Positions 4,157-51,730 of a DNA stretch of 51,730 nt are shown here, one piece after another (the stretch's first letter is position 1; each line of letters starts with the position of its first letter). The notes beneath the pieces were generated by a model that was not told the origin of the DNA, did no database searches, and saw only the letters and a program-made list of their open reading frames with translations. The stretch covers positions 1 to 51,730 of the IMG/VR virus record IMGVR_UViG_3300025678_000004. One strand, given 5' to 3'. The translations under genes and the position numbers were made by a program. The stretch comes from a virus.

Positions 4157-5581
4157 TTACACCTCTATCACGCCTCCATACCGTCTTATTTTCTCATGTT
4201 CAGCCGTTCCGAACGCATCCTCAAACGGGTCATCAGCATATGCATCACTAGAAGTATCATACATAGCATCCCGAAGCCAGTCAAACACAGTTCCGTCATC
4301 ATATTCATCCTTTAAAATCACCTCGCCCGGCTTTCCGGAGAACTGTTCGTCATACTCTTCCTGGGTCAGATCTGACTCAAATCCCCCAAGACAGAGCGCA
4401 ACACCACCGTTCATCCCATAATTCATGAGCATAAGAGCACACACCTGATCATCAAAAAACCCTTTCGGAGCCCCGTATTTTATATTCCCCGAATCGGTCT
4501 GGGTATATGTAAACGATTCAAGTTCCTCACGAAGAGAGGGATCAGGCGGGATGAAAATCTCACAGTTATGAAATGCAATCGAAAGCCGTTTTACCAGTTC
4601 CTTCTTGCTTTCCATCGTAAACTTATAACTTACAACATTCACCCCGTCTTTCTCAAGATCTTCCTGAATTGCATCCCCCACTCCGGTAGTGTCCAGAAAC
4701 ACCGGCGGGCGTCCGTACCGCTCATACACATCCCGCACCCGCATTTTTATATACGCCCATGCGGTCCGGTTGAACCGTTCTGAGTACACCAGTTCCTTTG
4801 TGGTAGTGTCCCCGACGTGGATAACTGTAAAATCCTGGTGTCTTCCGAGATCCACCCCCATAACATAGATTCTACCCGGCACGTACTCTGGGGAAATATT
4901 ATAACGCACGCAAGAGTCAATATTTTTAAAAACAGTTCCACCATCTGACAGAAATATTGCAAGAATTTCCTGTTCATACTCAAGCTCCGACAAATCCTGA
5001 ACAATCTCTTCAAGTTCCTCACGTTCCAGAAACGGGTTATCATACGACGAAAAGGTAAAACTCTCCCATTTTGGGTTATATGTCGGACTTCCTTTCTTCC
5101 CCTTCATATACAACTTGTAATACCAGTTCTTTCCACGCGGAGTTGTACAAAAAAGGGCCCATCCAAGTTTGTCCATCAGTGCCGGACGAATGACTTTAAA
5201 CCATGCATCCGGATGAACCATCGCAGCTTCATCCAAAACCACTCCGTCAAGCCCTTCCCCACGCAGGTTGTCGTATTTTTCAGCCGATTTTGCCCAGATT
5301 GTGGCCCCGTTCTTCAGTTCTATGCACAATTTTCCAAGATAAATATCTTTTATATACTTTTTTGGCAGTAATTTAAGCACCATCCGCCACATGATGTCAG
5401 TCTGGGGGAACGTCGGGGCCACAATCCAGTATATCCCACCAGGCTTTGAAAGTGCCGAGACAATCACTTTTGTGGCTCCAAACCACGATTTTCCAAACCT
5501 ACGGCCGCAATTCAGGCATATAAACCTCGCTTTCGAGTTATATACCTTCATCTGGTTCTCATGCAGCCCGATTTCAAGCAT
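4157..5581 (-). CDS. terL: Terminase large subunit
   Basis: Walker A CGRRFGKS and Walker B VVLDEAA, plus C-terminal RNase H-like nuclease acidic motifs (GVDLGRHQDFTV, FLDTTGVGD, DDQVCALM). 474 aa. Confidence 0.9.
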   Translation of the reverse strand: MLEIGLHENQMKVYNSKARFICLNCGRRFGKSWFGATKVIVSALSKPGGIYWIVAPTFPQTDIMWRMVLKLLPKKYIKDIYLGKLCIELKNGATIWAKSAEKYDNLRGEGLDGVVLDEAAMVHPDAWFKVIRPALMDKLGWALFCTTPRGKNWYYKLYMKGKKGSPTYNPKWESFTFSSYDNPFLEREELEEIVQDLSELEYEQEILAIFLSDGGTVFKNIDSCVRYNISPEYVPGRIYVMGVDLGRHQDFTVIHVGDTTTKELVYSERFNRTAWAYIKMRVRDVYERYGRPPVFLDTTGVGDAIQEDLEKDGVNVVSYKFTMESKKELVKRLSIAFHNCEIFIPPDPSLREELESFTYTQTDSGNIKYGAPKGFFDDQVCALMLMNYGMNGGVALCLGGFESDLTQEEYDEQFSGKPGEVILKDEYDDGTVFDWLRDAMYDTSSDAYADDPFEDAFGTAEHEKIRRYGGVIEV

Positions 5582-14105: not shown

Positions 14106-14116
14106 AGGTGAACATC

Positions 14117-16066
14117 ATGACAAATATTGTGAAGTTATGGAAAGAAAACCTGGACACCGCACACAAAGGCGAAATCATTGTATTGAAAGCAGAATACCCA
14201 AAGAAATCAAGTATAACAATCAACATCAATAACACACAGAAGGAATTATTTGATGAAATTGTAAAAGACCCGATACTCGCTGAAAATGCATTATATTCAG
14301 CGCTGATGGAAGGAAAATACATCCCGGGGTGGAATGGGTCAAAACACACAATTTCAATCAGATTCATCGGGTTCCCACAAAGAATCAAAGTAAAAGACCT
14401 GAACTCAAAGCACCTGGAAAAATTCACATCCATGAGAGTTGTCGTAAAGAAAATAAACAGTGTAAAACCAAGACTTGTGCATGCAGCATTCAAATGCAAC
14501 GCCTGCAAGGAAAAGATCACATATGTCCCTGTGGAAGAGGATGAAGTCGTTCCTCCGTCTGAAAAATGTCTCTGTGGTGGTAAATCATGGAGGTTCCTGC
14601 TCAGATCATCAATCAAAAAAGACTACCAGATCATCCAGGTCCAGGACCCTGCCGAAGACGGAGGAAGTTCAAAACCAGAGGTTCTCACAGTCAAACTCCT
14701 GGACGATTTATGTGGTAAAGTCCAGCCAGGAAACATCATAGTTATCAACGGTATCTATAGAGGCCAGCAGAAAAAACAGTCGGCCACATTAGATACCTAT
14801 CTGGATGCAAAATCCATTGAGATAACAAACAAAGACTTCAGCAAAATTGAAATCACAGAGGATGAAATTCGTGAATTCGAAGAACTTGCAAAAAATCCAG
14901 ATATATATGATATGTTATGGTCATCTATCGGATCAGTGGTCAAAGGATGGGAAGCAGTCAAACAAGCGATATTACTGCAGCTTCTTGGAGGGTGCGAGAA
15001 AATCACCGCGGATGGAGATCGCTTTAGGCCGGATTTCCACATCCTGTTATGTGGAGATCCATCCGTTGCTAAGTCAAAAATTCTCCGCTCTGCCTACAAC
15101 CTATGCCCCAGAGGTATTTATGCATCTGGCAAGGCTACATCAGCTGCTGGACTCACAGCGGCAGCCACAAAGGCATCAGACGGGGGATGGGAGATTGAGG
15201 CTGGTGCTGCCGTATTAGCAGACAAAGGCATGCTCATCATAGATGAGCTTGACAAAGTCGACAAGGAGGCAGTATCATCTCTCCATGAAATTCTTGAGGA
15301 ACAGATTCTCCATATCAACAAAGCAGGTATTAGTGCAGACCTTGCAACACGTGAATCCTGTCTTGCTGCAGCAAACCCGAAACGTTCACGATTTGACAAA
15401 TACCAGGACCTTGCATCCCAGGTTGCGTTCGCACCATCTCTTCTCTCACGGTTCGGTCTCATATTCCTCATGATTGACGAGCCGGACAAAACAAAAGACC
15501 GGGAGATTGCAAAGCACATCATCAACTCCCACCGGGGAGTGACTCATGAAAAACCAATTCCGATTGAGACCCTCCGGAAATACATTGCACATGCAAAACA
15601 GTCCTGTGAGCCGGAGATAACAGATGAAGCAGCACGGATGTATGAGGAGTATTATGTTAAAATAAGACATTCAAACGGAGAATCGACTATCCCTATAACA
15701 CCCAGGCAGATTGAGGATATCATCAGGATGTCAGAAGCCAGTGCAAAGACACGGCTGTCAAAATATGTTGAGCCGGTTGATGTCAGCCGTGCCATATGGA
15801 TATACGAACAGGCAATGAGAATGACTGCAACAGACCCGGGGACCGGGTCCATTGATGTGGATAAGATAACCGGAGGGATGTCATCATCAGCACGGGAAGG
15901 AATGGCAGAACTCAAGAAGTTGCGGTCTGAATTCTTTGAACAGTTCGAAAAATGGCCGTCAAAAAAGGAACTAAAAGATTATGCAATGCAGAAAGGAATG
16001 TCTGAATCATCAGCAGCATACCTTACCCGCGAATTGTGGAAAGAGATGGGACTGAATGCATATTAA
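14117..16066 (+). CDS. mcm: MCM replicative helicase
   Basis: Zn motif CNACKEK...CLCGG; Walker A LLCGDPSVAKSKIL; Walker B LIIDELDK; sensor AAANPKRSRFD; arginine finger LLSRFGLIF. AAGGTGA lies upstream of ATG 14117, and the tracked GTG 14108 lies inside that Shine-Dalgarno motif. Confidence 0.92.
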   Translation: MTNIVKLWKENLDTAHKGEIIVLKAEYPKKSSITININNTQKELFDEIVKDPILAENALYSALMEGKYIPGWNGSKHTISIRFIGFPQRIKVKDLNSKHLEKFTSMRVVVKKINSVKPRLVHAAFKCNACKEKITYVPVEEDEVVPPSEKCLCGGKSWRFLLRSSIKKDYQIIQVQDPAEDGGSSKPEVLTVKLLDDLCGKVQPGNIIVINGIYRGQQKKQSATLDTYLDAKSIEITNKDFSKIEITEDEIREFEELAKNPDIYDMLWSSIGSVVKGWEAVKQAILLQLLGGCEKITADGDRFRPDFHILLCGDPSVAKSKILRSAYNLCPRGIYASGKATSAAGLTAAATKASDGGWEIEAGAAVLADKGMLIIDELDKVDKEAVSSLHEILEEQILHINKAGISADLATRESCLAAANPKRSRFDKYQDLASQVAFAPSLLSRFGLIFLMIDEPDKTKDREIAKHIINSHRGVTHEKPIPIETLRKYIAHAKQSCEPEITDEAARMYEEYYVKIRHSNGESTIPITPRQIEDIIRMSEASAKTRLSKYVEPVDVSRAIWIYEQAMRMTATDPGTGSIDVDKITGGMSSSAREGMAELKKLRSEFFEQFEKWPSKKELKDYAMQKGMSESSAAYLTRELWKEMGLNAY

Positions 16067-35304: not shown

Positions 35305-35538
35305 TTACTTCACGAACCTCCCGTTCTCAACTTTTACGGGTGCTCCAGGTACAAAGTCAAGTGTGTATTCATAAATACCCTTTCGGTTGTTTGTCTGCAC
35401 AACAGTTACAATCTGCGATTTAATCGCACGCGGGTATCCGCTTTCATCAAGGAACGCCTGCAGAACCTCTGTAGGAACAGGCCCGCCTTTTCCACTCTTC
35501 TGCTGCACCTTTACATCTTCATCCAGTTCAAAATTCAT
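35305..35538 (-). CDS. Hypothetical small protein
   Basis: 77 aa, coupled to the upstream membrane-protein gene (4-nt overlap). Confidence 0.5.
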   Translation of the reverse strand: MNFELDEDVKVQQKSGKGGPVPTEVLQAFLDESGYPRAIKSQIVTVVQTNNRKGIYEYTLDFVPGAPVKVENGRFVK

Positions 35539-35840
35539 ACCACACCTCTCGCTTTCAGGATTCTCACAACTGTCCGCACACCTCTCTCTACAACAGCCAC
35601 AAGGGCTCCGTATGCGAGGAACTGTGCTTCAAACGATACCTGGGTAAGCTCCATGCCAGACACGAACATAAAGCCCCCTACAGCAGCCCCAACAACAGCC
35701 GTAGCAACAACCGGGTACGGATCAATATCCTTCCATGTCGTAGGGCTGCTTGGGTCTGCAACCTTGTTTACATACCAATACAGCGAATATGCAACTCCGG
35801 CAAACACTGCCGTAATAATTGGTCCTAATTCAATCATCAT
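35535..35840 (-). CDS. Small multi-TM protein (holin-like topology)
   Basis: 101 aa with hydrophobic helices LGPIITAVFAGVAYSLYWYV, PVVATAVVGAAVGGFMFV and FLAYGALVAVV, plus the basic tail RGVRTVVRILKARGVV. Confidence 0.45.
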   Translation of the reverse strand: MMIELGPIITAVFAGVAYSLYWYVNKVADPSSPTTWKDIDPYPVVATAVVGAAVGGFMFVSGMELTQVSFEAQFLAYGALVAVVERGVRTVVRILKARGVV

Positions 35841-36523
35841 AAACTCCCGGTATGCGATGATACCACATCAGTCTGGTTCTTTGTCATGTTTATATCAAGT
35901 GCTGTGTCATTTGTGATAAACGAATCAGAGAAATCAATGAAATCAAACTCCGGTCTCACAATAGCACCACCACTGGCATTTGTTCCTACAACAGCATGAT
36001 CATTGCTTTCAGTAAGGAACGTATACGTTCTGCCAAGTGTCTCGCGGCTCTGGCGCACCGCATAGGAAATATCACGCCCATACATACCGGCACCATCCCA
36101 TGCTGCCTGCTGGCCTACAGAAACATCTGCGTTCTCAACAAATTTCGCGGTGCTGATCTGGGCTTTCTGCGCAAACCCATAATGACTGCCTGTTACAACC
36201 TGATACGGATCAGAACCGGTCATACTTACAGATTCTGCAAATACACCCCCGTTCTCAAATTCAACATACCCGCTCTGGTTGTAGAAGTTGCCGGTGGTTG
36301 CATCAACGGTGTCTTTTGTCTGGTACCGCGTCTCACCCGGAAGGGTTACCAGGATACTCCCGGAAGACCCGCCAAGAGATTCGTTATCAACACCAGACCG
36401 CCACATTGTGTCAACCGACCGGTGAACCGATCCAAGTGTCTGAACCGTAAACGATGTAGTTGCAACTGCTGCAAATGCATGTGATACCAGAAGCATCATG
36501 ACAAGCAGTGCAGCAAATTTCAT
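35837..36523 (-). CDS. Secreted protein with N-terminal signal peptide
   Basis: MKFAALLVMMLLVSHAFAAVATTS is a classic n-h-c signal with an AFA cleavage motif. The mature part (about 205 aa) is Ser/Thr/Gly-rich. Confidence 0.6.
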   Translation of the reverse strand: MKFAALLVMMLLVSHAFAAVATTSFTVQTLGSVHRSVDTMWRSGVDNESLGGSSGSILVTLPGETRYQTKDTVDATTGNFYNQSGYVEFENGGVFAESVSMTGSDPYQVVTGSHYGFAQKAQISTAKFVENADVSVGQQAAWDGAGMYGRDISYAVRQSRETLGRTYTFLTESNDHAVVGTNASGGAIVRPEFDFIDFSDSFITNDTALDINMTKNQTDVVSSHTGSL

Positions 36524-38634: not shown

Positions 38635-39660
38635 TTAAGCCTCCAGAGCATCAAGATTTGATAAGAACGAATTATCCACCCTGCCAAGCGGGTTTCCTTC
38701 CATATCCAGGATAACGACATGGCCGCCTTTCCTGATAGTCTCGCTTCCAAAAGCTTCAATCGTCTTTTCCATTTCAGCAATCTTGGCATCATATGCCTTT
38801 TTCACTTCCGCAATGGCAAGATCAATCTTCGCTTTTACGACAAGGTCAAGAACGGATTCAAGGTTTGCTTTTGTAATATACTGCGATGCATCTTCCTTTA
38901 CAGGTTCCGGCTCCTGCACCGGTGCATCGCCAGACTTTTTCAGAAACTCAACAATATCAGAAATTCCTTTCTTCACTTCGTCAATCTCACTCTTAATGAG
39001 AGCGACGTCCTGCACCACAGGTTCCAGTTCAGACTTTACAACCACACCGTCAGTAGAAACGGTAGGTTCAGTACCGGAATCAACATGGTCCTGCTGATCA
39101 GCATTTGGAGCCATACTAGTATCAGGGAACGCTGCCTTTATTAACTCAACTGTTTTTTGTTCAAACTCCTCGCACAAATCAGGGGAAAACGACTTTGCTA
39201 TTTTTATATATGACCCCGGGTTTATCGCATTGTCACTACAGAGCGTAAACGACCAAAGCCGGATTGCCTTTGTAACACACGGAGACGTGCGTTCATGCGG
39301 CGCAAGCCGGCATTCATCAGACGCCATTGTGCGGACGCCATAGATTGAAATCCGGTTTAACTTTCCTTTCTCGATCTGCTCCCACACGTCATGGGTATCC
39401 CCGTCATCAGGAATCTTTGCCTTAAAATACGTGTCTCCCACTTTCGCATTTGGGTCATAATCCGGATGATTCTCATGTAATATCGGGTCCCCCGCTTTCA
39501 GAACACGACATTCCGTAACAAACCCGATTGGCCGCTCGGTATGCATCAGATGCAGAATAGGAATCTTCAAAAACAATGGAATGGCCTTTTCCATTGCTTC
39601 AGAGGTTATCAGTTCATTCTCACGGTCAACTATCGGGGAGGTCGCAATCCCAGATATCAT
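38635..39660 (-). CDS. Prohead protease (HK97/S78-like) fused to a coiled-coil scaffold domain
   Basis: GIATSPIVDRENELITSEAMEKA, ILHLMHTERPIGFV (His) and KLNRISIYGV (Ser) fit the HK97-protease blocks. The C-terminal ~170 aa are charged coiled coil. The start MISGIATSP (39660) is preferred over the tracked 39819, which overlaps the upstream gene by 194 nt. Confidence 0.7.
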   Translation of the reverse strand: MISGIATSPIVDRENELITSEAMEKAIPLFLKIPILHLMHTERPIGFVTECRVLKAGDPILHENHPDYDPNAKVGDTYFKAKIPDDGDTHDVWEQIEKGKLNRISIYGVRTMASDECRLAPHERTSPCVTKAIRLWSFTLCSDNAINPGSYIKIAKSFSPDLCEEFEQKTVELIKAAFPDTSMAPNADQQDHVDSGTEPTVSTDGVVVKSELEPVVQDVALIKSEIDEVKKGISDIVEFLKKSGDAPVQEPEPVKEDASQYITKANLESVLDLVVKAKIDLAIAEVKKAYDAKIAEMEKTIEAFGSETIRKGGHVVILDMEGNPLGRVDNSFLSNLDALEA

Positions 39661-40285
39661 CCTCCGGCCCAAACTCCTGACTTGCCCCGTCAACAGTAAG
39701 GGTTCGCGGGATTTGAAGAGGTGGTTTTGGCTGTTGTCCTGGCCTGTGCCACAATCGCGGGTCATAATATAAATCAAGCTGTAATGGGAAATAACAGCTT
39801 GGGGAAATGTGTTTTGCAACTGCCCACATCAGATACCCAATCCGGTCCCGTGTATACGGATTCCCACAATAGAGGCTCACTAATATCTTCAGAACATTGA
39901 GCCACCCTCTGTCATAGACGTTGTTATGATCCGAGTACATAGACGTGATATTGAGCACCTCAAGCAGAATCATAACATTTGGATCACGACTCACCTGCAT
40001 GCATTCTTCATAACTCTCATGCCCACAATACACTGAGTTATATTTGTCAAGTATCTCTGATGATATCTCAACATCAGCAATCTGTTTTAAAATCTCAAGC
40101 TGCTCAAGAAACTGCGGAACAGTCTCCATATTTTCAGGGTCTTTCACCTGACCCGGTTTATACATCAGATCCTTGTACAGATCCTTCTCAGCAAGCATCA
40201 TATCAACAGTCAGCTTCTGCCCTGGTGGTGACCGGGGAGGATGGTTCTGTTTCCCGCCTTTCGGCGGTTTTGGTCGCTTTACCAT
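39626..40285 (-). CDS. Hypothetical protein (basic, Pro-rich N-terminus)
   Basis: 219 aa starting MVKRPKPPKGGKQNHPPRSPPGQK. It belongs to the head-module operon. Confidence 0.5.
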   Translation of the reverse strand: MVKRPKPPKGGKQNHPPRSPPGQKLTVDMMLAEKDLYKDLMYKPGQVKDPENMETVPQFLEQLEILKQIADVEISSEILDKYNSVYCGHESYEECMQVSRDPNVMILLEVLNITSMYSDHNNVYDRGWLNVLKILVSLYCGNPYTRDRIGYLMWAVAKHISPSCYFPLQLDLYYDPRLWHRPGQQPKPPLQIPRTLTVDGASQEFGPEDDIWDCDLPDS

Positions 40286-40286
40286 G

Positions 40287-40406
40287 TTAAATCACCAGCC
40301 CAATAAAACATCCTATAATCATACCAATAATAATCCCAAGAACAACAGAGCGTATAACAACTTCATTTTCGAACTCGTATGTAAATTCTGGTGGTTTCTG
40401 TGTCAT
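40287..40406 (-). CDS. 39-aa tail-anchored membrane peptide
   Basis: MTQKPPEFTYEFENEVVIRSVVLGIIIGMIIGCFIGLVI. The longer tracked start at 40472 adds an implausible Cys/Trp leader. Confidence 0.4.
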   Translation of the reverse strand: MTQKPPEFTYEFENEVVIRSVVLGIIIGMIIGCFIGLVI

Positions 40407-40511
40407 GCTATACACTCCCACATCCTGCCCACAACAATTACAATCGCCCCACATAAAATGCCACAAAAGCACCCGTATAAAAACGCACCGAAATCAAAAT
40501 CAGCCTGCATG

Positions 40512-41219: not shown

Positions 41220-42014
41220 TTATAATGGAAATACTGTGTCCCACTCTACAACTAACGGGCGAGTCAAATCAATGCTCGTTGACAGAAAATCCGGAGACCC
41301 GCCATTTGCACACAAATACGCTGATAACATATATGTACCGCCATAACTTGCACCACCGGTCAAATACCATTTAAATCCGGTCAGCCCAGAATATCCATAT
41401 GTAAACAACCCAATCTCGGTGCATGCAGGAACAATTTCCCAGGCGTCGTTTTTATATACATACGCCCGCAAATCGGCAAGATTTTTTACGACGTCTGGAG
41501 ATGTAACCGGCACCGTATTCCACGCACTCCCATCCCATGCCACAAGCGTCCCGTTTACGATATACCGGTCTCCTGTAGACGGAGATGTGGGATAATCTGT
41601 TACTATGTCAATAACAGGATCTTTTATATTTGAAATGGAAACAGCCAACCCTGTAAACGCAGATAACATAGACTCCGCCGAAATCGATGCCCCGCGCCGT
41701 ATAATATACGGAGATGCAACCGAAAAATCATAATATGCAAATTTATAATTTCCAGTAAGAGTCACCTTCTCTGTTTCGAGCCCGGTCAAGTTGTGTGCTG
41801 GGGTTCTGGTAACACCAGACCCAAGTCGTATTTGGAAAGTCCCACCAAGATGATACGTAGCAGTAACATATTGACCATAACCCCCATACAAATTTATATA
41901 CATCCCACAAAGTCCACAAAATAGGGATTTTACAAAGTTAGATGTGATGTGATTATCACACACAAACACACACGCGTCATTTTGCAAGCCACGAACAACA
42001 CCACGAATTTTCAT
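41220..42014 (-). CDS. Fibre-associated protein with DUF2793-like motif
   Basis: TDYPTSPSTGDRYIVNGTLVAWDGSAWNTV carries the P.sP.tGDRYiv...W.G..W signature. The start MKIRGVV (ATGA overlap, GGAGGT 5 nt upstream) is preferred over the tracked 42026. Confidence 0.5.
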   Translation of the reverse strand: MKIRGVVRGLQNDACVFVCDNHITSNFVKSLFCGLCGMYINLYGGYGQYVTATYHLGGTFQIRLGSGVTRTPAHNLTGLETEKVTLTGNYKFAYYDFSVASPYIIRRGASISAESMLSAFTGLAVSISNIKDPVIDIVTDYPTSPSTGDRYIVNGTLVAWDGSAWNTVPVTSPDVVKNLADLRAYVYKNDAWEIVPACTEIGLFTYGYSGLTGFKWYLTGGASYGGTYMLSAYLCANGGSPDFLSTSIDLTRPLVVEWDTVFPL

Positions 42015-42616
42015 ACAAACCTCCATTTAAATACCCACTGTACCAAAACCGGGGCAACGGGATCTGGAACAAGCCCCGGAGAATCTAGCACATACCTAGC
42101 TAACAATCCGGTTGGCGGTGTTACTTCAATTGAAAACTCACTAAGCGGAGCATCTAAAGTCGGTGTTGCGTTATCAGAATACACCGACTCCATAAGCGGG
42201 CACAAAACGCCAATTTCATATAATGCATCTTCACCAGATAAATACCCATTTAACACCCCAGCAGACCACGAACACAGAACTGCCAATGAAATTTCGTCGG
42301 ATTTAATTGTCCACCCAGCCGAATACAGTGATGTGGGATCACACAATATCGGGGTGGTTAAATTTGTCATTAACACATCCGTTGGGACATTAGACTTTCC
42401 AAACAATATAGTAAAAGTAGACGCCGGCAAATTCACACGTCTTTGATGATTGCTATATCGTGCTGCCAGATACATTCTATCTGAATATGCCCATATCATC
42501 AAATGTCGAATCAAAGATTTGCAAACCGTGTTGTTTCCTACAGAAACAACCCGATTCCCATTTGTAATCTTAACATTCCCAGAAATTTCAATTGAATTTA
42601 AAGAACTCATAATCAC
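42011..42616 (-). CDS. Fibre-associated hypothetical protein
   Basis: 201 aa. The N-terminal pattern (IEISGNVKITNGNRVVSVGNNTVCKSLIRHL) is loosely similar to the N-terminus of the downstream 41220 gene. Confidence 0.45.
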   Translation of the reverse strand: MIMSSLNSIEISGNVKITNGNRVVSVGNNTVCKSLIRHLMIWAYSDRMYLAARYSNHQRRVNLPASTFTILFGKSNVPTDVLMTNLTTPILCDPTSLYSAGWTIKSDEISLAVLCSWSAGVLNGYLSGEDALYEIGVLCPLMESVYSDNATPTLDAPLSEFSIEVTPPTGLLARYVLDSPGLVPDPVAPVLVQWVFKWRFV

Positions 42617-42849
42617 ACCTGAATAAACGAAACCGAAGTGCCAACAAGCAAAGGCTCAATATCAACCGCACCAGGGTTGGATGAAACCAACCCCAAACAA
42701 TCCAAGTCGTCTGAAACCCCAATGTAATTAAAAGCGCCAGATTCTCCTGGTGTATGATACATCACATCGGAAATCAACATCGACTCTTCTAAAATTACAC
42801 GATTTGTTGAATATGGAAAATATGTCCCAAATCTACGTATAAATCTCAT
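42613..42849 (-). CDS. Hypothetical small protein
   Basis: 78 aa from MRFIRRFGTYFP. The ATG overlaps the stop of the S8-fibre gene (ATGA). Confidence 0.45.
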   Translation of the reverse strand: MRFIRRFGTYFPYSTNRVILEESMLISDVMYHTPGESGAFNYIGVSDDLDCLGLVSSNPGAVDIEPLLVGTSVSFIQV

Positions 42850-45398
42850 ACTAAAACATACACCCCCGTCACAGTTAAGCATTCCGCATTTCCATTTCCA
42901 CCAACATCTGTGGAAACTTCAATTGAAGCACCATATGGAACATTATAATTGGCTGTAGAAATGTCAACAACCGTGTCAACCCATGCGGAGTCGGACGTTC
43001 GTCTCCCGGCATTTGAGTTCGCCGTGCATACCGGCAACCCATTTACTAACAAATTTATTGCCGGTTGTGTAGCACCGGTATCCCCGGCATTACATACATG
43101 CGATATCTGGACCAGCTTCGCATCGCCAAGCATCCATCTAAATCGCGTTTTCATAAAATGTCGGAGCAAATTTGTTCGAGCCTCACCATTAAACACCCCA
43201 TTTATATACAAATCGACATGTGCAACCCGGCTTGCATCACACACTGCAAGTTCCTGTATCGTTCCAGACAACGGTGCTCCTGCAATTCCAATCACACTTG
43301 ACGTCAGATCACGGATTATACCATAATACCACACCCCACCAATCTTGTACTTTATCCCCATGCCTTTCTGGAGAACAGAGGTAAGATTTGCAACAGTTGT
43401 TATAGATGATGTGCTCGCAGGAGTTGCAACATACTGAACCGATGCAACCCGCAACCAATAATTCACCTGGGTCCCAGTAAACTCAAGAAACGCATTCCCC
43501 CCTGCATCCTGGGTCATATTAATATTTATTCCGCCTCCGGCAGGGGCAACAAGCTTGTTCAGAAGATAGTCCGCAGATGCATCCCCACTATATATCTTCG
43601 CTTTCCCACCAAGATCCGCCGGGGTATATATCGTCGGTTTGTTCCTGATGAATGCATCAGAATTTACATCCGTTTCATTCCAATCGGCCTGAACATTCTT
43701 TTCAGCATCAGAAGGAGCATGCTGACTCGTCGCATGATCGTATGCAAATTTCCCACGATCCCCGCGGTATGCAGTATCACTCGTCTCCCCAAGCGTTGCA
43801 GGAAACGTGTTCGGCTTGTCTATGATGTTCCCCCAGCACACCGATGAAGAACTGTTCAGGATAATATCATACGTAGTTTCATCACGCCACACAAGCCAGT
43901 CACCAGGAAGAACTCCGGTCTCACCAATATACCCGGCATGAGAAATAACATAATATTTCCCCTGCTCACCTGGAGGCAGAGGGTTTGCAGGATTATAAAG
44001 CCCGGCATATGTTAACGCCCCAACCACGCTCGAAGGGAGATAGTCAGATTTTATTTTCCCTGCAGAATCTAGAATTGAAAGCGAAAACTCGTGATTATTT
44101 AACGTGAGCCCGGTACCTGCGGTATACCCCTCAGAATCTATCTTTGCCCACACACCGCCTTTTCTGGCATAATACTCATCCGTAGCAACATCCCGCACCG
44201 CACACTGCTTTTTAATTCCAAGAACGACCGTGGGGTCATCTATAAGCCCGGACAACGCCTTATATGCATTCACGCGGCCACCGGTTGCACATTTCCCGGA
44301 CAATGCCGGGATGATATCAACACCATTCAATATCCGTGTCCGTATCTGCTGGGCTGTCAGTTCCGGGAATGCCCCTTTCAGAAGAACTGCAATTCCAGTA
44401 ACCATCGGAGCAGCCATTGACGTGCCGGACAACCACACATATGAGTTCCCGGTCAGTGTACTGCAGATATTTGTACCCGGAGCAGCTACATGAACACTCG
44501 CAGCACCATAGTTAGACTGAGCATTTAACTGATCCTTGTTATTGGTATTACAAACCGAAATGATATTATTAAATCCAAGAGATGCTGGATATACCGGGGT
44601 CGAATCATTGTTATTTGCATCATTTCCTGCAGCACACACAAACAGCACCCCAGGCATACTCGCAATCTTATCGGCAACCGCCTGAGAGAACGAATAACTC
44701 CCAAACGACATATTAACAATATGACACCCCATCATCTCAGCATGGTCAAGCCCATACAGCACAGAGGTATCTGTTGCCTGCATACTTGACCCAAGCGATT
44801 TTATCGGGTATATCCGGCATGACCATGCAACACCACATACTCCCTGCCCATTATTCCCTTTCGCTCCAATTATCCCTGCAACATGCGTCCCGTGATCCCC
44901 ATCATCCATCGGATCAGAATCCATGTTGTAAAAATCAAATCCATCCGCTTTTTTACAGTTATCAGACAAATCCGGATGATTATAATCAACCCCGGTATCA
45001 ATAACCCCAACCTTTACCGACGTGCTCCCAATCGGCTTTCCAGCCTCATACAGCAACCGCCATGCATACGGTGCACCAATATCTGCTCCGGCAGTCCCTC
45101 CGTTCTGCCCCTGGTTAAAGAGCCCCCACTGGTTCCCGGCCTGATAATACGGGTCATTCGGGTGGTATGGCGTCGGTAAAAACCCGGTATAAATGTGGTC
45201 GGGTTGTGCAAACTCAACCAGCCCCGATTTATTCAGGGCGTCAACCTCATCAAGTACAGGAGAATCCTCAAAGGAGATTACAGTAATATCTCCTATTGCA
45301 TCTACAATTTCCGCTCCAGCCACAACCGCACGGATATCATCTATAGACACCCCGGGCTTCAGTTTTGCAAGGAGCCTTCCTTCAACATATTCTGCCAT
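42846..45398 (-). CDS. Subtilisin-like (S8) serine protease fused to tail-fibre modules
   Basis: It has an I9-like propeptide at the N-terminus and the catalytic triad blocks VGVIDTGVDYNHPDL (Asp), DHGTHVAGIIGA (His) and SGTSMAAPMVTGIAVLL (Ser). The C-terminal ~450 aa carry fibre-type motifs (WGNIIDKPNTFPATLGETSDTAY, NSDAFIRNKPTIYT). Confidence 0.85.
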   Translation of the reverse strand: MAEYVEGRLLAKLKPGVSIDDIRAVVAGAEIVDAIGDITVISFEDSPVLDEVDALNKSGLVEFAQPDHIYTGFLPTPYHPNDPYYQAGNQWGLFNQGQNGGTAGADIGAPYAWRLLYEAGKPIGSTSVKVGVIDTGVDYNHPDLSDNCKKADGFDFYNMDSDPMDDGDHGTHVAGIIGAKGNNGQGVCGVAWSCRIYPIKSLGSSMQATDTSVLYGLDHAEMMGCHIVNMSFGSYSFSQAVADKIASMPGVLFVCAAGNDANNNDSTPVYPASLGFNNIISVCNTNNKDQLNAQSNYGAASVHVAAPGTNICSTLTGNSYVWLSGTSMAAPMVTGIAVLLKGAFPELTAQQIRTRILNGVDIIPALSGKCATGGRVNAYKALSGLIDDPTVVLGIKKQCAVRDVATDEYYARKGGVWAKIDSEGYTAGTGLTLNNHEFSLSILDSAGKIKSDYLPSSVVGALTYAGLYNPANPLPPGEQGKYYVISHAGYIGETGVLPGDWLVWRDETTYDIILNSSSSVCWGNIIDKPNTFPATLGETSDTAYRGDRGKFAYDHATSQHAPSDAEKNVQADWNETDVNSDAFIRNKPTIYTPADLGGKAKIYSGDASADYLLNKLVAPAGGGININMTQDAGGNAFLEFTGTQVNYWLRVASVQYVATPASTSSITTVANLTSVLQKGMGIKYKIGGVWYYGIIRDLTSSVIGIAGAPLSGTIQELAVCDASRVAHVDLYINGVFNGEARTNLLRHFMKTRFRWMLGDAKLVQISHVCNAGDTGATQPAINLLVNGLPVCTANSNAGRRTSDSAWVDTVVDISTANYNVPYGASIEVSTDVGGNGNAECLTVTGVYVLV

Positions 45399-48300
45399 TT
45401 ACAGCACCACCTGCATCTCAATGGTTCCAATAGACTGCACTACCTGGAACTCAACATTTTCTTTTACACACACAAGCAACACCGAATCCCTGTAATGACT
45501 CGACTGAATAAATCCGTCCGTTCCGGTCTGAGTAACACGATCCGAAAATACTATTTTCTGTCCTGACCGCTGGGCAATCTTCCACCCGCCTGCTCCAACA
45601 CCAACAACTTCGATCTTCTTTCCGATCTCACACGTTTCCGGAAGTGTCAGAACAATCCTGGACTGGCTGTCTGCAATATAATGCTCATTCCCCACAGCAT
45701 CCTGTGACTGGGTTATTGTCTTCCATATCTCCACATTTTCATGAATATCAGGGACCGACCAATCAAGTTCCTGCCACCCGTCATACGAATACTTCCAATG
45801 AGTCCCGGTTGACAGAACATATGCAATCGCACCAATCGGAGCATACTCAAAGAACCATACCCCTACAGACGCCCCTTCAGGAAGGATATACGTTGCAATC
45901 TGTTCTGCATGACCTTCAAACGGACCATACGGCTGAGTCCCCACAATAAACCGGTGCTCATAATCATAGTTTACAGGCGGAGTATTCGCAATTGCAATTA
46001 CCGGAGACTGCCACGACCCGTCCCCGATACCGGCAGGACCTCTCGGACCGGTTTCCCCCTGCGGGCCCTGTGGGCCTGGCTCCCCGCGTTCTCCCTGCAA
46101 CCCGCGTAATCCACGCGGACCCTGTATTCCCTGGGGCCCCTGCGGGCCCTGCGGGCCGGGAGGCCCTACAATCGGACCCACATCAACCCATGCAGAATCT
46201 ATGTAAACATAACAGTCTCCATCAGATTCGCAATAATACCCATCATATTCATTCGCAGTGGATGGAAGATCTGCTGGTGTAGCAACCCGGCCTTTCATCA
46301 CGATATTTGTACCAGGAGCACCAGGAGGCCCCTGTATTCCCTGCGGGCCCGGGGGACCTTGTGCACCATCCTCACCATCTGCCCCGTTTTCTCCCGGGTC
46401 TCCTTTATCCCCTTTCGGACCGGTTACAACCGCGGTTTTATTCACCCACGTTGTACCATCCCACATCTCAAACACGCCATTCGTAGATATGAGCGTCCCT
46501 TTTACCTTTTCATCCGGATGGGACACAAAATACGAATCCCGCTGGGCAGATGAAACAAAATAATGGGAATCCTGAATCATAAACGATGCCGCAACATTAT
46601 CATCGTTTACAAATGCGTTCCGCGATTCATCCCACACCAATATCTGACCTTCTTTCGGGCTTGCAACTTCAAACCCTCCAAGCAGCATGGCATCATGCCC
46701 ATGCGACGCAACGGCAAACTCACTCGCATGTTTTCCATCAAGCAAATCGGCATTCAGATTGTCAACCTTATTTGGAGAAGTGACATTAAACGGAACATCT
46801 CCTGAAGAAAACGTATGAATTGCAGAGATCGTTCTCGGAACCGATATATGCACATACTGTAAATGATCATCCGCAGAGAGCCCCTGGAGCGATTCGTGGG
46901 ACGTTGTGCTTGGAAGTTTGTTCCATCCTCCGTCAGCATACAGATATGTTGCATTCTCATCAGTAACAACAACAACCCATCCGTTCTCCGGCGTATCCAT
47001 ATCCCATCCATATCCATCCCATGTTGCAATCTCGGATGTGGTAGTCAGAATATGGCGGTCGCCGGTATCCGGAGACGCCGGAAGGATATCAACAAAGCTT
47101 ATTACCGCTTGTTTCCAGACAATCCCACTGCTCATCACAGTTGTCAGATATCCAAGTGTAACCGGATCGGAATCAGTAAGCGGAGTTGGTAAATTGTATA
47201 TCCTGGACCCCTGCATGTTTATGGGGCCATTCATAACTCCTCCGGCACGTTTCAGATACCATTCATCGTGTGTATGCGGGAGTCCGTTAATATTATATGT
47301 CCCCCCAAGCGGGAGATCAATCACACCTGCAATAATCCCATTCGGGCACCGCACAACCCCGTCTTTATAGATATACAGTGCTTCTGTCTGTGTAAGCGTC
47401 CCCCGTCCTTTTACAACAAGAGCAACCCGTGGATCGGGCGACGTAGTTCCATAATCCCAATCAGAACCATGTCCCTCGATAATAAGGCCCCCACCAAACT
47501 CACTCGCAACAACATTCTTGTACAGATTTGCAACAAAGCCTATAGATGTCTGGTTAAACCCAGAATATCCCGAATATTTACTTAAGTCCAGAATTCCTGC
47601 ATGAACACTGCAATCGAGGTTCCCATACGTCTTTATCTTGAAATCCCCATACCGCTCATGTGGGGAGTGTCTCACAAACAACCCTTCAGGTACAAACGCA
47701 TCCTTATCTGCATTTTTCAGCCAAGCCCCGTTTGAATCGTTCCATGCAGCAAGACAGTTCCGGGTAACCGGAGTAACCGGATTTATAGACCCGGACCCAC
47801 CTCCACCAGACCCCCCATTAATCAGGAAACAGTTTTCAAACGGTTGTGGTGTTGCAGGATCAACGCCAAGCCGCAACTGCCGGAGCGTTGCGTTCCATAC
47901 AAACTCCCCGTCATTAAATTTCTGATTAAGCAGCCCTGCCGCATTCCCCCGCTTTATACGGAACAGATTCACCGTTTCATAAACCGATCTGAACGTTGCA
48001 ACAACATCAACATCCTCATTTATGAACGGATAATCAATTGCTACCGGCCCGTCTTCAGGAGGTTCTATCTCTTCTCCATTTATGTACAGCGTGTCAATTA
48101 CATATCCCTCATCAGGAATTACGTGCAGCGTTGTCCGATCTCCCTGCAAAAAATCACCATATTCAGGATCTTCAGCAGGGGACACATACGCTCCTCCATG
48201 CTCGCCAACCCCCGAAAAATCAAATGTATATGTCTGATGCGGGCCTGCACCAAAATCAACATATACATTCAAATCCGAGTTTATGTTACTTATCAAATGC

Positions 48301-48587
48301 CCGCCTATCCCACCGGAAGGGTTTGAACCAAACGCCGATTCCGAATATATTGTGGATTCGCCTGTAGAAATATTCTCAACGGTTATTGATTTTGTACGAA
48401 ACCCGTTCGGAAGATCATATCCTCCAGAAGAAAAAGCAGCCCGACTCGGGCGGGATTTAATATATAAATTCCCGCCCGGGGAAACAAGAACCTCCCCCTC
48501 ATTATCAACAAAATTTACTGTGTTGCACACCTCACAATTATTTCCAAACACATCGCGTGTCCGTTTAATTATGTTTACCTTATACAT
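45399..48587 (-). CDS. Tail fibre with two collagen-like Gly-X-Y segments
   Basis: 1062 aa. [37 protein letters not shown] is encoded at 46311-46421, and [46 protein letters not shown] at 46029-46166. Fibre motifs are also present ([44 protein letters not shown]). Confidence 0.85.
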
Positions 48588-48591
48588 ACAA

Positions 48592-48996
48592 TCACGCTAT
48601 ATCCAAATTCACCGGGCAGAATATTCCACCTTTTGATATAATCAAAAACACATTCTGTCGTATTAACGTTTCCCCATTTCTTGCAAATCTGGCACAATCA
48701 ACATATTTTACAATCCCAGAGTTCCCTTTCCATAAATATGTAACATCATAAATCCCGCTTCTCCCACTCCATGTATAAATCCTGTTATTTCCGGCATTCA
48801 ATGAGTATGTCCCGCTCCCGGAATCAACTTTCGCAATAGAATTGGAAACCCGTGTAAGATATACACGGGCACCATCACTGTCATCCCATTCAAACTCGTG
48901 TGATGCCGGGCCGGATTCATAAAACGGAACTCCAAATGCCCCGACAGATACCGGCGGGCCTTCAAAAAGCAACCGGATTACTCTTACATACTCCAT
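48592..48996 (-). CDS. Hypothetical virion-associated protein
   Basis: 134 aa, beta-rich, inside the fibre run. Confidence 0.45.
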
Positions 48997-49658
48997 ACTG
49001 CCTCCTTAAAATATACCCTCACACGGGCATCATCAAACGGTGTCAGATATTTTAACTTCAATCTACGCGGGGGAGAACTAATCTGACTCGGATATGCAAC
49101 CCCATTTTCATTATATATAACTCCTTCAAACTCAACTCTGTCAATATCAGCGCCAATATACGGATATATTTCCAAATTGACAACATCCCCGGCATACAGC
49201 GGAATATTGCGGGTTATAGGAGACACAAGCCCCATAAACCCGCACTGAACGGGGATGCACTTTAAAATCTCAAACTCGTCCTGCGTATTGATTATAGGAC
49301 TAAAAATAAGATCCTTCACCCAAATCTTATGTAATTCAAATGCCTGATACAAAAACCCGATCACAATCGGAGTTTCAATCGGTTTCGGAATCCTGACCCG
49401 ATACTCAAGAAACTCCATTACCTGCGTCGGCGTTGGTTTTGACGGAAGTAACTTTGTCTGACCGTTATACTGAACATATATATATGTCACCCTGCTATGC
49501 CAGTCCGACAACTCCTGCATAACCTTAAAAGAAAAATACCCATGATTTTCAATCCCAGGGCCATTTATAACAATTTCATGTGAAATATAATCCGGTCCAA
49601 ATTCGATCTCAGCCATAGGCAGATAATTTTCTCCAGGTATATATGGTCCATTAATCAT
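48984..49658 (-). CDS. Hypothetical virion-associated protein
   Basis: 224 aa starting 3 nt after the stop of the 931-aa gene. Confidence 0.45.
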   Translation of the reverse strand: MINGPYIPGENYLPMAEIEFGPDYISHEIVINGPGIENHGYFSFKVMQELSDWHSRVTYIYVQYNGQTKLLPSKPTPTQVMEFLEYRVRIPKPIETPIVIGFLYQAFELHKIWVKDLIFSPIINTQDEFEILKCIPVQCGFMGLVSPITRNIPLYAGDVVNLEIYPYIGADIDRVEFEGVIYNENGVAYPSQISSPPRRLKLKYLTPFDDARVRVYFKEAVWSM

Positions 49659-49661
49659 AGT

Positions 49662-51730
49662 TCACCCACTAAACACGCTAGGAACCGCAGGCATACATGA
49701 AACTTTCACATATACCGCATACCGGTTTACACCAGGTATCCGCTCAAACGCTTTTACAGTCCCTCCAAAAATCCGCATTCCTCCAACAGTATAATCAACT
49801 ATAAACTTAAACACAGAATAATGAGAAATTTCAACCGTATACGTAACATGTCCAAACCGATCAAATTTCAATACAGTATCAATACCCATCTGAACACATG
49901 AAACATTTACCTCAACCCCTTCATATCCACGCATATTTGGAGTAATACCCCCCCATGCAATAATATCAATATATATTCGCTGAGATGTATCCGGATTCAG
50001 TGATTCCAGTGTAACCACATATGTCGGTGTTGTTCCTGCAATAGAATCCACAAACACCATTTTTGTTTTATACCCGTCACAGCTCACAACACATTCATAT
50101 ATCCCAAACAAAAGAGTCCAGAATGTATACTCACCATATTTTGTGGATTCCCCAATTTTAACTGCTACAGGCGATTTATTATTCTCATCAGTAACAACAC
50201 GGATATAAAAGTTCCCATACATATTCGGGTCATAAATAGGCACCGAATCCCCCCATTTCCCAAGCAACACAATAACCGCATTCGGCTTTATCGACCCAAA
50301 TGTAAATGTTATTTCCCTGTTTACACGATCGATAGTCGCGTCGCCGGTGGAAACCCCCACCCCGGTAACCGGATCATATGCAAGAAGACCTATCGGATCG
50401 TTTGCAGTAACTGACACGTTTTCGCGGACAATGCCTTTAAGATCATATCGTATCGTCCCAACGCTATCGCGTTTTCCATGCGCAGAACCAGGAATATGAT
50501 ACAATCCCTCCAGATACTTACTTCCCCCAACACTAATAATCCCACCCTGACTCTTAAACGAATATGTCACATATTCATCCTCTTCTTCCGGTGGAGGAAT
50601 TGGCCCCGGGTCTGGCGGATCAACCGGAACCACAGGCGGGGGAGAAACCTCATTATCATCAAAATACGCAGGAGTAATTGTAAAATAACATGGATCAACT
50701 AATATAGGAAGTCCTGGGCCTGGGGTTGGGTTTGGAACTGGATTCGGGGTAGGGTTCGGTTTTGGAATCTTTGGTATTTTTGGCGGGGGGATCGATTCTT
50801 CTTCCTTCTCCTCCTCCTCTTCTTCCTTTACTTCCGGCTCAATATTATTTAAAAACTCAAACACAGCAACGCCATAATTAATTCCATTCCCCTTAGAAAC
50901 CGGCCCTCCTTCATGCTGCCACGACCCCTTAATATACTTAAACACAAACAGCGCCGCCTTACGAAGCGGGTCCTGTTCTATCTTTTTCTGAATTTCTTCA
51001 ACCGCCACTTCAACATCAATCCACCCCCTGGCGGTCTTAACCATATATTTCCCATATTTTGCATCCTCAACATACCGCTCAACAATCCTGCCTCCAACAA
51101 CCTCAATCTCCCGGCGTAAAAACCCGGACATTTTAACCGTAGCAGGGATCTTCGTAATTCCTTTTGCCCCACCACTCCCAAGCGTCAGTTCAATCACATC
51201 AAGCATTGTCCCGATAGCCCCGCGGGCACGTTGCAAAGACCCGGTTACAACACTGTTTAACGCAACCACCCCCATCATTCCAAATTCCCCACCAACAGAA
51301 TACCCCATATACATCAGTTCTGTCGGAAGCCCGTGAATTTTTACATACCCTTCAGTACCATCATCTGCACGGGCTTCAGACACAATGTACAAATCATAAT
51401 CATTCTCAACCGATTCTGTTAAATAAACATCACACTCGCGAGATTCGCGTGCAACAACTGTAACAGCACCAGAACCACAATACCACACAGATCCAAACTT
51501 TGCATACCCCCAAACACAACACTGGGAACCTGCCGCGAACATCGCACTGCACGGGCTCACGGTCATGTACATCCCCCCATCCGTGCGATATCCAACAAAC
51601 ATTATGCGAATACCTTCAACGTAACTTCCATCAGGAGCAAACGTACGAATTTTAACATATCCGTATTCCTGAACATACGGCCCAGGTTCAAGCACATACG
51701 GCTGAACCATTATATCTGCAAAAACCTCAC
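49662..51730 (-). CDS. 3' portion of the junction-spanning 931-aa gene (continues from 854..1)
   Basis: The ORF is open to the window end. The tracked Met at 51710 is internal (residue 250 of the full protein). It contains a poly-Glu plus Pro-rich linker: EEEEEKEEESIPPPKIPKIPKPNPTPNPVPNPTPGPGLP. Confidence 0.8.
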   Translation of the reverse strand, partial: EVFADIMVQPYVLEPGPYVQEYGYVKIRTFAPDGSYVEGIRIMFVGYRTDGGMYMTVSPCSAMFAAGSQCCVWGYAKFGSVWYCGSGAVTVVARESRECDVYLTESVENDYDLYIVSEARADDGTEGYVKIHGLPTELMYMGYSVGGEFGMMGVVALNSVVTGSLQRARGAIGTMLDVIELTLGSGGAKGITKIPATVKMSGFLRREIEVVGGRIVERYVEDAKYGKYMVKTARGWIDVEVAVEEIQKKIEQDPLRKAALFVFKYIKGSWQHEGGPVSKGNGINYGVAVFEFLNNIEPEVKEEEEEEKEEESIPPPKIPKIPKPNPTPNPVPNPTPGPGLPILVDPCYFTITPAYFDDNEVSPPPVVPVDPPDPGPIPPPEEEDEYVTYSFKSQGGIISVGGSKYLEGLYHIPGSAHGKRDSVGTIRYDLKGIVRENVSVTANDPIGLLAYDPVTGVGVSTGDATIDRVNREITFTFGSIKPNAVIVLLGKWGDSVPIYDPNMYGNFYIRVVTDENNKSPVAVKIGESTKYGEYTFWTLLFGIYECVVSCDGYKTKMVFVDSIAGTTPTYVVTLESLNPDTSQRIYIDIIAWGGITPNMRGYEGVEVNVSCVQMGIDTVLKFDRFGHVTYTVEISHYSVFKFIVDYTVGGMRIFGGTVKAFERIPGVNRYAVYVKVSCMPAVPSVFSG
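51604..51730. repeat. Terminal direct repeat, right copy (identical to 1..127)
   Basis: Same as the left copy. The unique genome length is therefore 51,603 bp. Confidence 0.95.

Follow-up and report, generated by a model that had tools for sequence, protein, structure and literature searches.

A pro-subtilisin fused to viral fibre modules, a candidate virion-borne protease of a probably archaeal tailed virus

Fibres armed with an enzyme are a known kind of viral protein, and the known enzymes act on glycans or peptidoglycan. The peptidoglycan endopeptidases of phage virions (M23, CHAP and NlpC/P60 at the tail tip) are virion peptidases that cut peptide bonds of the host wall at entry; ectolysins are mentioned in two reviews (PMC10791045, PMC13437554). 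The glycan-directed enzymes include the P22 tailspike, the K1F endosialidase and the Klebsiella depolymerases, and the general picture of such fibres has been reviewed (PMC5380687, PMC13437554). Archaeal viruses also encode enzymes with a target in the host envelope, namely PeiW and PeiP of Methanothermobacter viruses, lysis enzymes that cut the peptide of pseudomurein, and the virion-borne domains of SSV19, HFTV1 and HRTV-DL1, which resemble glycosidases or sialidases and are directed against glycans (PMC10791045, PMC13437554). By what means archaeal viruses pass an S-layer or sheath made of protein is a question recognised as open: a 2024 review of virus entry stated that no S-layer-degrading hydrolytic enzyme had been identified yet (PMC10791045), a 2026 review of S-layers described glycan-directed domains only (PMC13437554) and a 2024 study of sheaths raised virus-encoded proteases as a possibility only (PMC11576556). 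Here we analysed a gene that encodes a subtilisin-like protease of family S8, preceded by its prodomain and followed by fibre modules, in the IMG/VR record IMGVR_UViG_3300025678_000004, the full 51,730 nt of which constitute the window. We consider it possible, at somewhat less than an even chance, that a tailed virus, probably archaeal, carries on a virion fibre a latent protease that would cleave the proteinaceous envelope of its host at entry. Our literature searches turned up no account of S8 fused to a fibre, and in public databases the family is annotated as "S8 family peptidase" or "hypothetical".

The gene has exactly the extent and the strand given in the original prediction, and its parts, with residues numbered on the 850-amino-acid (aa) open reading frame (ORF), are as follows.

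42846 to 45398, minus strand: pro-subtilisin/fibre fusion gene, 850 aa, no leader (from the ORF list; stop codon at 42846-42848)
45174 to 45398, minus strand: N-terminal subtilase prodomain, aa 1-75 (marginal match to PF22148; cellular pro-subtilases align)
44244 to 45173, minus strand: S8 catalytic domain, aa 76-385 (Pfam S8, PDB matches, invariant catalytic columns)
44997 to 44999, 44892 to 44894, 44622 to 44624 and 44418 to 44420: codons of Asp134, His169, the oxyanion Asn259 and Ser327, respectively (read from the codons)
43839 to 44243, minus strand: neck and mid module, aa 386-520 (motif LDxxGKIxxxYLPS and a small DUF2793-like beta module)
43539 to 43838, minus strand: fibre repeat module, aa 521-620 (GETSDTAYRGDRGKFAYDHATSQHAP...NVQADWNETD...FIRNKP)
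42849 to 43538, minus strand: distal beta-rich exchangeable tip, aa 621-850 (swapped among relatives; homologous to fibre tips)

The results of our Pfam searches showed that aa 127-358 match Peptidase_S8 (PF00082) with an E-value of 4e-55 and 187.6 bits (cut-off 21.8), and the fusion protein matched the PHROG family phrog_3677, annotated as "protease", with an E-value of 2e-61. The best PDB matches were deseasin MCP-01 (3vv3, E 2e-57), the AK.1 protease (1dbi) and thermitase (1thm), all of them to the S8 part only. The motifs DTGVD, HGTHVAG, AAGN and SGTSMAAP start at residues 134, 169, 256 and 324, respectively, and the Asp, His and Ser blocks that had been described as intact are present, with D134, H169, N259 and S327 in place. 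In an alignment to the numbering of subtilisin BPN', the catalytic His is the first His of HGTHVAG (His169). Comparison with the family showed that D134, H169, N259 and S327 are invariant in all of the 10 and of the 9 homologues aligned, and the tetrad is kept across relatives of 43-94% identity.

The S8 core is the best conserved segment of the family, with 67-97% identity. The ratio of nonsynonymous to synonymous substitution rates (dN/dS) of the S8 domain was 0.09 against a homologue of 94% identity and about 0.045 against one of 68% identity, dS being saturated in the latter comparison, and that of the prodomain ranged from 0 to 0.13. Judged by its sequence, the enzyme looks intact and under strong purifying selection, and it is likely an active protease.

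The N-terminal region had been described as an I9-like propeptide; a prodomain is indeed present, and its type is that of fervidolysin rather than Pfam I9, by a marginal match. Residues 2-67 match the Fervidolysin_NPro-like family PF22148 with 20.7 bits, just below the cut-off of 21, and the same profile matched three of the nine viral family members at E-values up to 0.01, the best being 2e-5. Many cellular pre-pro-subtilases align with the protein from residue 1-5 through residue 383. The fusion protein has no signal peptide and begins in the prodomain, while the cellular relative P0007 has a hydrophobic leader. All viral members keep the prodomain and lack the signal peptide, and the prodomain would serve as both chaperone and inhibitor.

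Comparison with other peptidases separated the protein from several better known kinds. It shares family, prodomain type and motifs with the cellular thermitase-like subtilases (3vv3, 1thm, 1dbi and a Methanospirillum protease, L039), at 40-51% identity over the prodomain and catalytic region; these enzymes, however, carry a signal peptide in front and domains such as PKD, PEGA or FN3 at the C-terminal end, whereas the viral family has no leader and carries fibre modules instead. It shares phrog_3677 with the stand-alone S8 proteins of Bacillus, Staphylococcus and jumbo phages, which are 27-37% identical to it; those examined are about 290-400 aa long (about 287 for Tsamsa gp173 and about 397 for the BMBtp16 subtilase), lie among non-structural genes or near an integrase and have no fibre modules. 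A gut-phage S8 member of 688 aa has no recognisable fibre part.

With the S74 chaperone domains the protein has in common that a serine-type peptidase is encoded in a fibre gene. S74 domains are an unrelated family, C-terminal, which cleave themselves off once and are absent from the mature fibre, whereas here the enzyme is an S8 peptidase, N-terminal, with an Asp/His/Ser triad. No S74 domain (PF13884) was matched in the fusion protein or in any of the nine family members at E-values up to 0.01, so an identity as an S74 intramolecular chaperone was rejected, in agreement with the distinction made in the original prediction. An identity as the capsid maturation protease was also rejected, because the virus has its own S78/XkdF-like head protease (38635-39819) beside the capsid gene. 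Among NCBIfam models no equivalog was found, all matches lying far under the cut-offs (for instance 33 bits against 900 for the anti-phage peptidase IteS).

The C-terminal half (aa 386-850), searched alone, matched 153 proteins. The matches that were scanned carry Phage_tail_fib, Phage_T7_tail with Phage_fiber_2, Phage_tail_C, Phage_fiber_rpt or Phage_head_fibr with Gp10_C, and some of the matching proteins themselves join a fibre to an enzyme, either a GDSL esterase or a beta-helix domain of the pectate-lyase-like type. The fusion to fibre modules that had been proposed is borne out by these partners. The neck and mid module is common to many viral fibre proteins, and IMG/VR viral contigs match aa 431-605 at about 42% identity; in the AlphaFold2 model the aa 386-520 part is beta-rich, with predicted local distance difference test (pLDDT) scores of 70-87. 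The repeat module (aa 521-620) corresponds to the consensus of 128 aligned viral proteins, is up to 74% identical to IMG/VR contigs and is matched by phrog_38707 over aa 535-574.

The tip behaves differently from the rest of the protein. Residues 623-848 share about 30% identity with the C-terminal tip of a megaphage protein, a collagen-like tail fibre of 2166 aa (735-kb phage), and in the homologues P0003 to P0009 aa 621-850 are replaced by unrelated sequence. Against the homologue of 94% identity, dS was 0.05-0.17 over the first 520 codons and 0.94 in the distal tip, and the tip has therefore been exchanged by recombination, a pattern that is usual for receptor-binding ends. Across the family, aa 1-385 are 60-100% identical and aa 621-850 are exchangeable, as in fibres.

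Comparison with the glycan tailspikes named above and with the fibre-esterase and fibre-beta-helix fusions P0130, P0122 and P0192 showed that all combine a hydrolase on a (here predicted) virion fibre with a receptor end, and that they share shaft modules, an exchangeable tip and the accessory, host-specific nature of the enzyme. Here, however, the substrate would be a protein, the fold is the alpha/beta fold of subtilisin, and the enzyme is N-terminal with a prodomain of its own; no beta-helix was found, since aa 386-850 gave no Beta_helix or pectate-lyase match even at E-values up to 5. The analogy with tailspike depolymerases that had been drawn thus holds in principle and not in geometry, the protease being N-terminal, opposite to the classical order. 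The phage peptidoglycan endopeptidases differ in that they belong to other families, cleave cross-links and are located at the tail tip or on the tape measure, not on fibres whose tip can be exchanged. That a fibre should carry an enzyme is a familiar notion; the family is distinct in its enzyme class, in the position of the enzyme, in the logic of its prodomain and in its probable protein substrate.

The strongest argument for a place in the virion came from close relatives without the protease. Sister viruses in IMG/VR, whose portal and capsid proteins are 81-86% and 84-89% identical, respectively, to those of the window, have at the same place, without S8, one long fibre gene (941, 1239 or 1498 aa) that starts like the 1062-aa fibre gene which precedes the fusion gene in the window. 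At its end, the sister fibre shares 33-53% identity with residues 593/658-850 of the S8 fusion. Since the fusion protein carries the fibre end of its sisters, it is likely a component of a virion fibre, as far as homology can tell. The S8 domain is an accessory module, because close sisters have shaft and tip without it, and the idea of an assembly factor is weakened, since the shared fibre parts fold and function without S8. The S8 part was absent from all 14 IMG/VR loci that match aa 431-640 in a scan with exact peptides of the window protein, a scan that overlooked the fusion carrier UViG_3300006930_000001 of a 75-kb virus lineage.

The same observations bear on the alternative that the protein is an egress enzyme, the equivalent of an endolysin with N-terminal catalysis and C-terminal envelope binding, which, set free or exposed late in infection, would attack the S-layer or sheath from the inside, or would act in lysis as well as on virions. 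Endolysins have an N-terminal enzyme and a C-terminal binding domain, and the layout of the fusion protein, with an N-terminal enzyme and a variable C-terminal binding domain, is the same. The absence of a signal peptide fits a holin-dependent enzyme, and small membrane ORFs exist at 40287-40472 (one transmembrane segment) and 35535-35840 (two transmembrane segments). Moreover, the only known lysis enzymes of tailed archaeal viruses are pseudomurein endoisopeptidases (PMC10791045), and proteases that breach sheaths have been suggested as a possibility (PMC11576556). However, the C-terminal half consists of modules of the trimeric-fibre type, its tip is homologous to the structural fibre tip of the sisters, the gene lies directly behind a fibre gene and not by a membrane protein (the nearest transmembrane ORF is about 2.4 kb away and the next 7 kb), and the S8-less sisters must lyse their hosts without the enzyme. 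We therefore regard a role in egress as unlikely.

The genes that surround the fusion gene, and those used to place it in the genome, are as follows.

49662 to 51710, minus strand: 682 aa, upstream cassette, across the terminal repeat from the portal gene
48984 to 49658, minus strand: 224 aa, upstream cassette
48592 to 48996, minus strand: 134 aa, upstream cassette
45399 to 48587, minus strand: collagen-like/DUF2793 fibre, 1062 aa (Pfam Collagen and DUF2793; 51 PHROG families, mostly tail fibre)
45402 to 45695, minus strand: last module of this fibre, about 98 aa (aa 965-1062), which co-occurs with the S8 gene
42613 to 42849, minus strand: 78 aa, downstream small gene
42011 to 42616, minus strand: 201 aa, downstream small gene
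41220 to 42026, minus strand: 268 aa, downstream small gene, weakly DUF2793-like
4157 to 5581, minus strand: terminase
1516 to 3336, minus strand: portal

The neighbouring fibre gene and the tight coupling that had been reported were both found. The stop codon of the fibre gene abuts the start codon of the S8 gene without a gap (TAAATG), and the S8 stop codon overlaps the start of the 78-aa gene as ATGA. The pair of a collagen-like fibre (about 1060-1116 aa) followed by an S8 fusion was present in every context fetched, that is, in seven independent loci (L003, L004/L005, L102/L103, L104, L105, L111 and L136). Two genome backbones carry the pair, one of them that of the 75-kb virus, which is a different virus with another type of capsid protein. 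In the window the pair belongs to a 10-kb cassette (41220-51710) between the portal and the head protease and capsid genes, not past the gene for the 2151-aa protein; in the 75-kb lineage this cassette has the capsid gene on one side and the tail genes on the other.

The last module of the upstream fibre, of about 98 aa, was found at 52-100% identity in 7/7 loci that carry S8, and the sister loci without S8 all lack it. This strict co-occurrence, together with the tight packing of the genes, would suit a protease that matures or assembles fibres, in which S8 would process the collagen-like fibre or the fusion itself, in trans or as an N-terminal counterpart of S74, with no role against the host. 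Proteolytic maturation is common in phage fibres, for example through S74 domains, and the best structure match of the enzyme is the collagenolytic deseasin MCP-01 while its neighbour is collagen-like. However, the sisters assemble a homologous shaft and tip without S8, there is no evident need to fuse a processing enzyme to an exchangeable tip of the receptor type, and the MCP-01 match reflects the thermitase-like subfamily, since thermitase and the AK.1 protease score nearly as well. The module is also homologous to the C-terminal tips of the S8 fusions P0005, P0006 and P0011, which marks it as a tip module that is reused and speaks against a dedicated substrate or dock. An assignment of these last 98 aa as a dedicated dock for the S8 domain was accordingly downgraded, and we hold a role of the protease in fibre maturation or assembly to be unlikely as well.

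The position of the S8 domain also allows it to be a structural joint or adaptor, with the subtilisin fold attaching the half-fibre to the virion or to the upstream fibre, the cleft possibly filled and catalysis secondary or used a single time. The domain occupies the N-terminal slot that is usual for fibre anchors and is the conserved end of a protein with a variable C-terminus; moreover, the fibre of the S8-less sisters is one polypeptide, while the S8-bearing genomes have two genes with S8 at the break. An invariant tetrad and strong constraint on the region of the active site are unexpected for a purely structural module, however, no structural model supports docking, and the terminal module of the upstream fibre looks like a tip and not like a dock. 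We give this explanation a small probability. As to geometry, a two-segment fibre with the protease at the joint and two separate fibres are both possible.

The reading that we prefer is that of a protease carried on a virion fibre. The fusion protein would be made in the cytoplasm without a leader, and the prodomain would fold the subtilisin domain and keep the enzyme inhibited during the assembly of the virion. The exchangeable tip of the C-terminal fibre part would bind the host surface, and outside the cell the protease, active or activated there, would cut S-layer, sheath or plug proteins or surface appendages, which would give access to the membrane or free the particle from decoy debris. 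We deduce here that the protein enters the virion, that it is active and that its prodomain keeps it latent, and likewise what its substrate and host would be, and a function as an envelope depolymerase is plausible on these grounds. We advance with greater reserve, as possible and rather doubtful, the wider proposal that this would be the first virion-borne protease "depolymerase" of any prokaryotic virus, a latent subtilisin that would be activated outside the cell to cut a purely proteinaceous envelope (the S-layer, or the sheath or plug of Methanospirillum-like methanogens), with S8 as a transferable accessory that some members of a virus lineage would have gained and that close sisters lack.

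Were the enzyme active on envelope proteins, the concept of the depolymerase would extend from sugars to proteins, the passage of tailed archaeal viruses through a protein wall would be explained, and a possible tool to open methanogen envelopes would be at hand. The fusion family offers a clonable candidate, with Ser327Ala as a catalytically dead control and the S8-less sisters as a natural comparison.

The host implied by this reading is an archaeon, and the evidence for it came from two genes and from the sampling sites. A complete MCM helicase (OB, AAA and lid domains) is encoded at window positions 14108-16066 (plus strand); it belongs to a virus-only clade of 62-98% identity on contigs of up to about 51 kb, and its cellular relatives, at 35-40% identity, are all archaeal (Archaeoglobaceae, Methanocorpusculum, Methanoregula and Thermoplasmatota). 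The closest cellular S8 domain among 185,579 species genomes is 51% identical and is encoded on an ordinary chromosomal contig of a Methanospirillum metagenome-assembled genome (MAG), while bacterial S8 matches are about 35-47% identical. This Methanospirillum protease (L039 7898-10891, contig CAZCSN010000014.1, 997 aa) has, besides S8, a prodomain of the fervidolysin type, a C1 domain resembling papain and two PEGA domains, and its S8 may be the source of the captured viral domain. The samples of the relatives were from an anaerobic bioreactor, a landfill and wetland soil. Because of the archaeal-type MCM, the nearest cellular S8 and these sample types, we take an archaeon enveloped in protein to be the probable host, likely although not established to be of the Methanomicrobiales type. 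A scan of GTDB genomes for the S8 family returned cellular subtilases only, and the supplementary tables on published viruses of sheathed archaea (PMC11576556) contain no IMG/VR relative and no S8-bearing scaffold, only other scaffolds from the same samples.

Several results weigh against the reading of a fibre-borne entry protease. The host assignment of the original prediction, favoured by the MCM and by the Methanospirillum S8, is weakened by the absence of any provirus in GTDB genomes in a scan with the capsid protein, and by the Paceibacterota label of one relative, which is the only organism label carried by the viral S8-fibre family; the contig concerned is viral and was probably mis-binned. 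The protease is N-terminal, where the virion anchor of a fibre usually stands (for example Phage_tail_fib or the N-domains of T7 tails in the partner proteins). It is away from the receptor-binding end and may, by our own estimate, lie 15-25 nm from the surface that is touched by the tip. Archaeal sheaths have been described as remarkably resistant (PMC11576556), and a subtilisin may not cut them. The cassette lies among head genes, and a head or neck fibre is therefore as possible as a tail fibre; the "tail" label that the fibre modules had been given is an assumption only. The archaeal virus HFTV1 is documented to attach head first (PMC9973310).

Structure prediction also gave little in favour of this reading. 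The full-length AlphaFold2 model, made from a 10-sequence alignment, had a pLDDT of 37 and was unusable, and the monomer model of aa 386-850, made from 128 sequences, had a pLDDT of 63, with a distal part that is almost all beta at low to moderate confidence. A Foldseek search of this model against the PDB gave nothing at E-values up to 0.001. Against BFVD it gave three weak matches with template modelling (TM) scores up to 0.13; a match to the P560 depolymerase (E 0.15, TM-score 0.14) was non-significant, and TM-scores were at most 0.15 in the fold searches overall. No anchor-type domain was found in the Pfam, PHROG and C-terminal-half scans, the N-terminus being the pro-S8 region.

The S8-fibre architecture is rare. 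Besides the full-length homologues P0001 (94% identity) and P0002 (68%, from a 52-kb sister genome) and the further close homologues P0003 to P0006, P0008 and P0009, an exhaustive HMMER search of 1.84 billion cluster representatives added P0361, P0365, P0011 and perhaps P0461 and P0475; six to eight of the representatives have the architecture. All of these additions start with the pro-S8 region at residue 2-4, and P0361 and P0365 run on into DUF2793-type and collagen-like tail-fibre modules. The Paceibacterota label belongs to P0505 (NCBI MFA5432927.1, 847 aa), a member of the P0002 cluster that was deposited as "S8 family peptidase" and is encoded on a 7.5-kb contig of a Candidatus Paceibacterota MAG.

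The origin of the enzyme leaves room for a last alternative, a host protease captured as a moron or auxiliary gene, which would release nutrients or degrade proteins of competitors or of defence systems, with the fibre part as a generic adhesion element. The closest S8 relatives are indeed secreted cellular multidomain proteases, of Methanospirillum and of many bacteria, and the small stand-alone S8 genes of Bacillus phages lie in non-structural regions. However, the gene studied here lies inside a structural block, in frame with fibre modules and leaderless, its cassette is conserved in two virus lineages, and its tip is equivalent to the fibre tips of the sisters. We give this alternative very little credence.

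Bases 1-127 recur exactly at 51604-51730, a 127-nt direct terminal repeat which shows that the window represents a whole genome of about 51.6 kb, assembled as a circle or terminally redundant. No tRNA genes were found in the window. The three genes of the upstream cassette (682, 224 and 134 aa) gave no family matches; homologues of the 224-aa and 134-aa proteins (25-32% and 60-61% identity, respectively) precede the fibre/S8 pair in the 75-kb lineage, L102, L104 and L136. Downstream, the 268-aa protein gave weak PHROG and DUF2793 matches, and homologues of the downstream genes follow the S8 gene in L003 and L105 and the fibre gene in the S8-less sisters. After these small genes, the minus strand continues with genes for 222-aa and 219-aa proteins, the head protease, the capsid gene and the tail genes, which include that of the 2151-aa protein, of tape-measure size, and then those of two large proteins of 760 and 1052 aa without family matches. 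Among GenBank phages we found no relative of the capsid protein or of a secreted 228-aa protein encoded just past the capsid block.

This 228-aa protein (35837-36523, minus strand) carries a textbook signal peptide (MKFAALLVMMLLVSHAFA/AV) as well as numerous N-glycosylation sequons, and its gene is followed by the 101-aa ORF with two transmembrane segments (35535-35840, minus strand). It agrees with the screening criteria for SH-like proteins of the sheath study (signal peptide, 150-350 aa; PMC11576556), and its best match among the published SH-like proteins was a Methanospirillum-virus protein (23% identity over 171 aa, E 0.014 in a tiny database), which is weak. A copy of 70% identity is present in an IMG/VR relative. 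The 61-aa ORF at 40287-40472 (minus strand), between the 222-aa and 219-aa genes, has its one transmembrane segment as a C-terminal hydrophobic stretch and is possibly a holin-like or membrane protein; the sister genome L003 has a 55-aa gene at its place. On the plus strand, GC content and a strand switch delimit a replication module at about 10-19 kb, and P0243 (1005 aa), a member of the MCM clade, has an extra PF14528 domain, possibly an intein-type insertion.

In the second lineage the S8 fusion is followed downstream by several large Laminin_G_3 (concanavalin-like lectin) and Gly_rich_2 proteins (L102 10083-12029, L004 14081-18332), which suggests that the fusion is one of several surface-active proteins in a multi-adhesin host-recognition block. 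The 75-kb and related lineage also has a gene for a PAS-domain protein (154-177 aa) between the fibre cassette and the head-tail connector genes (L004 18781-19314, L102 12064-12528), which is unusual for a structural block.

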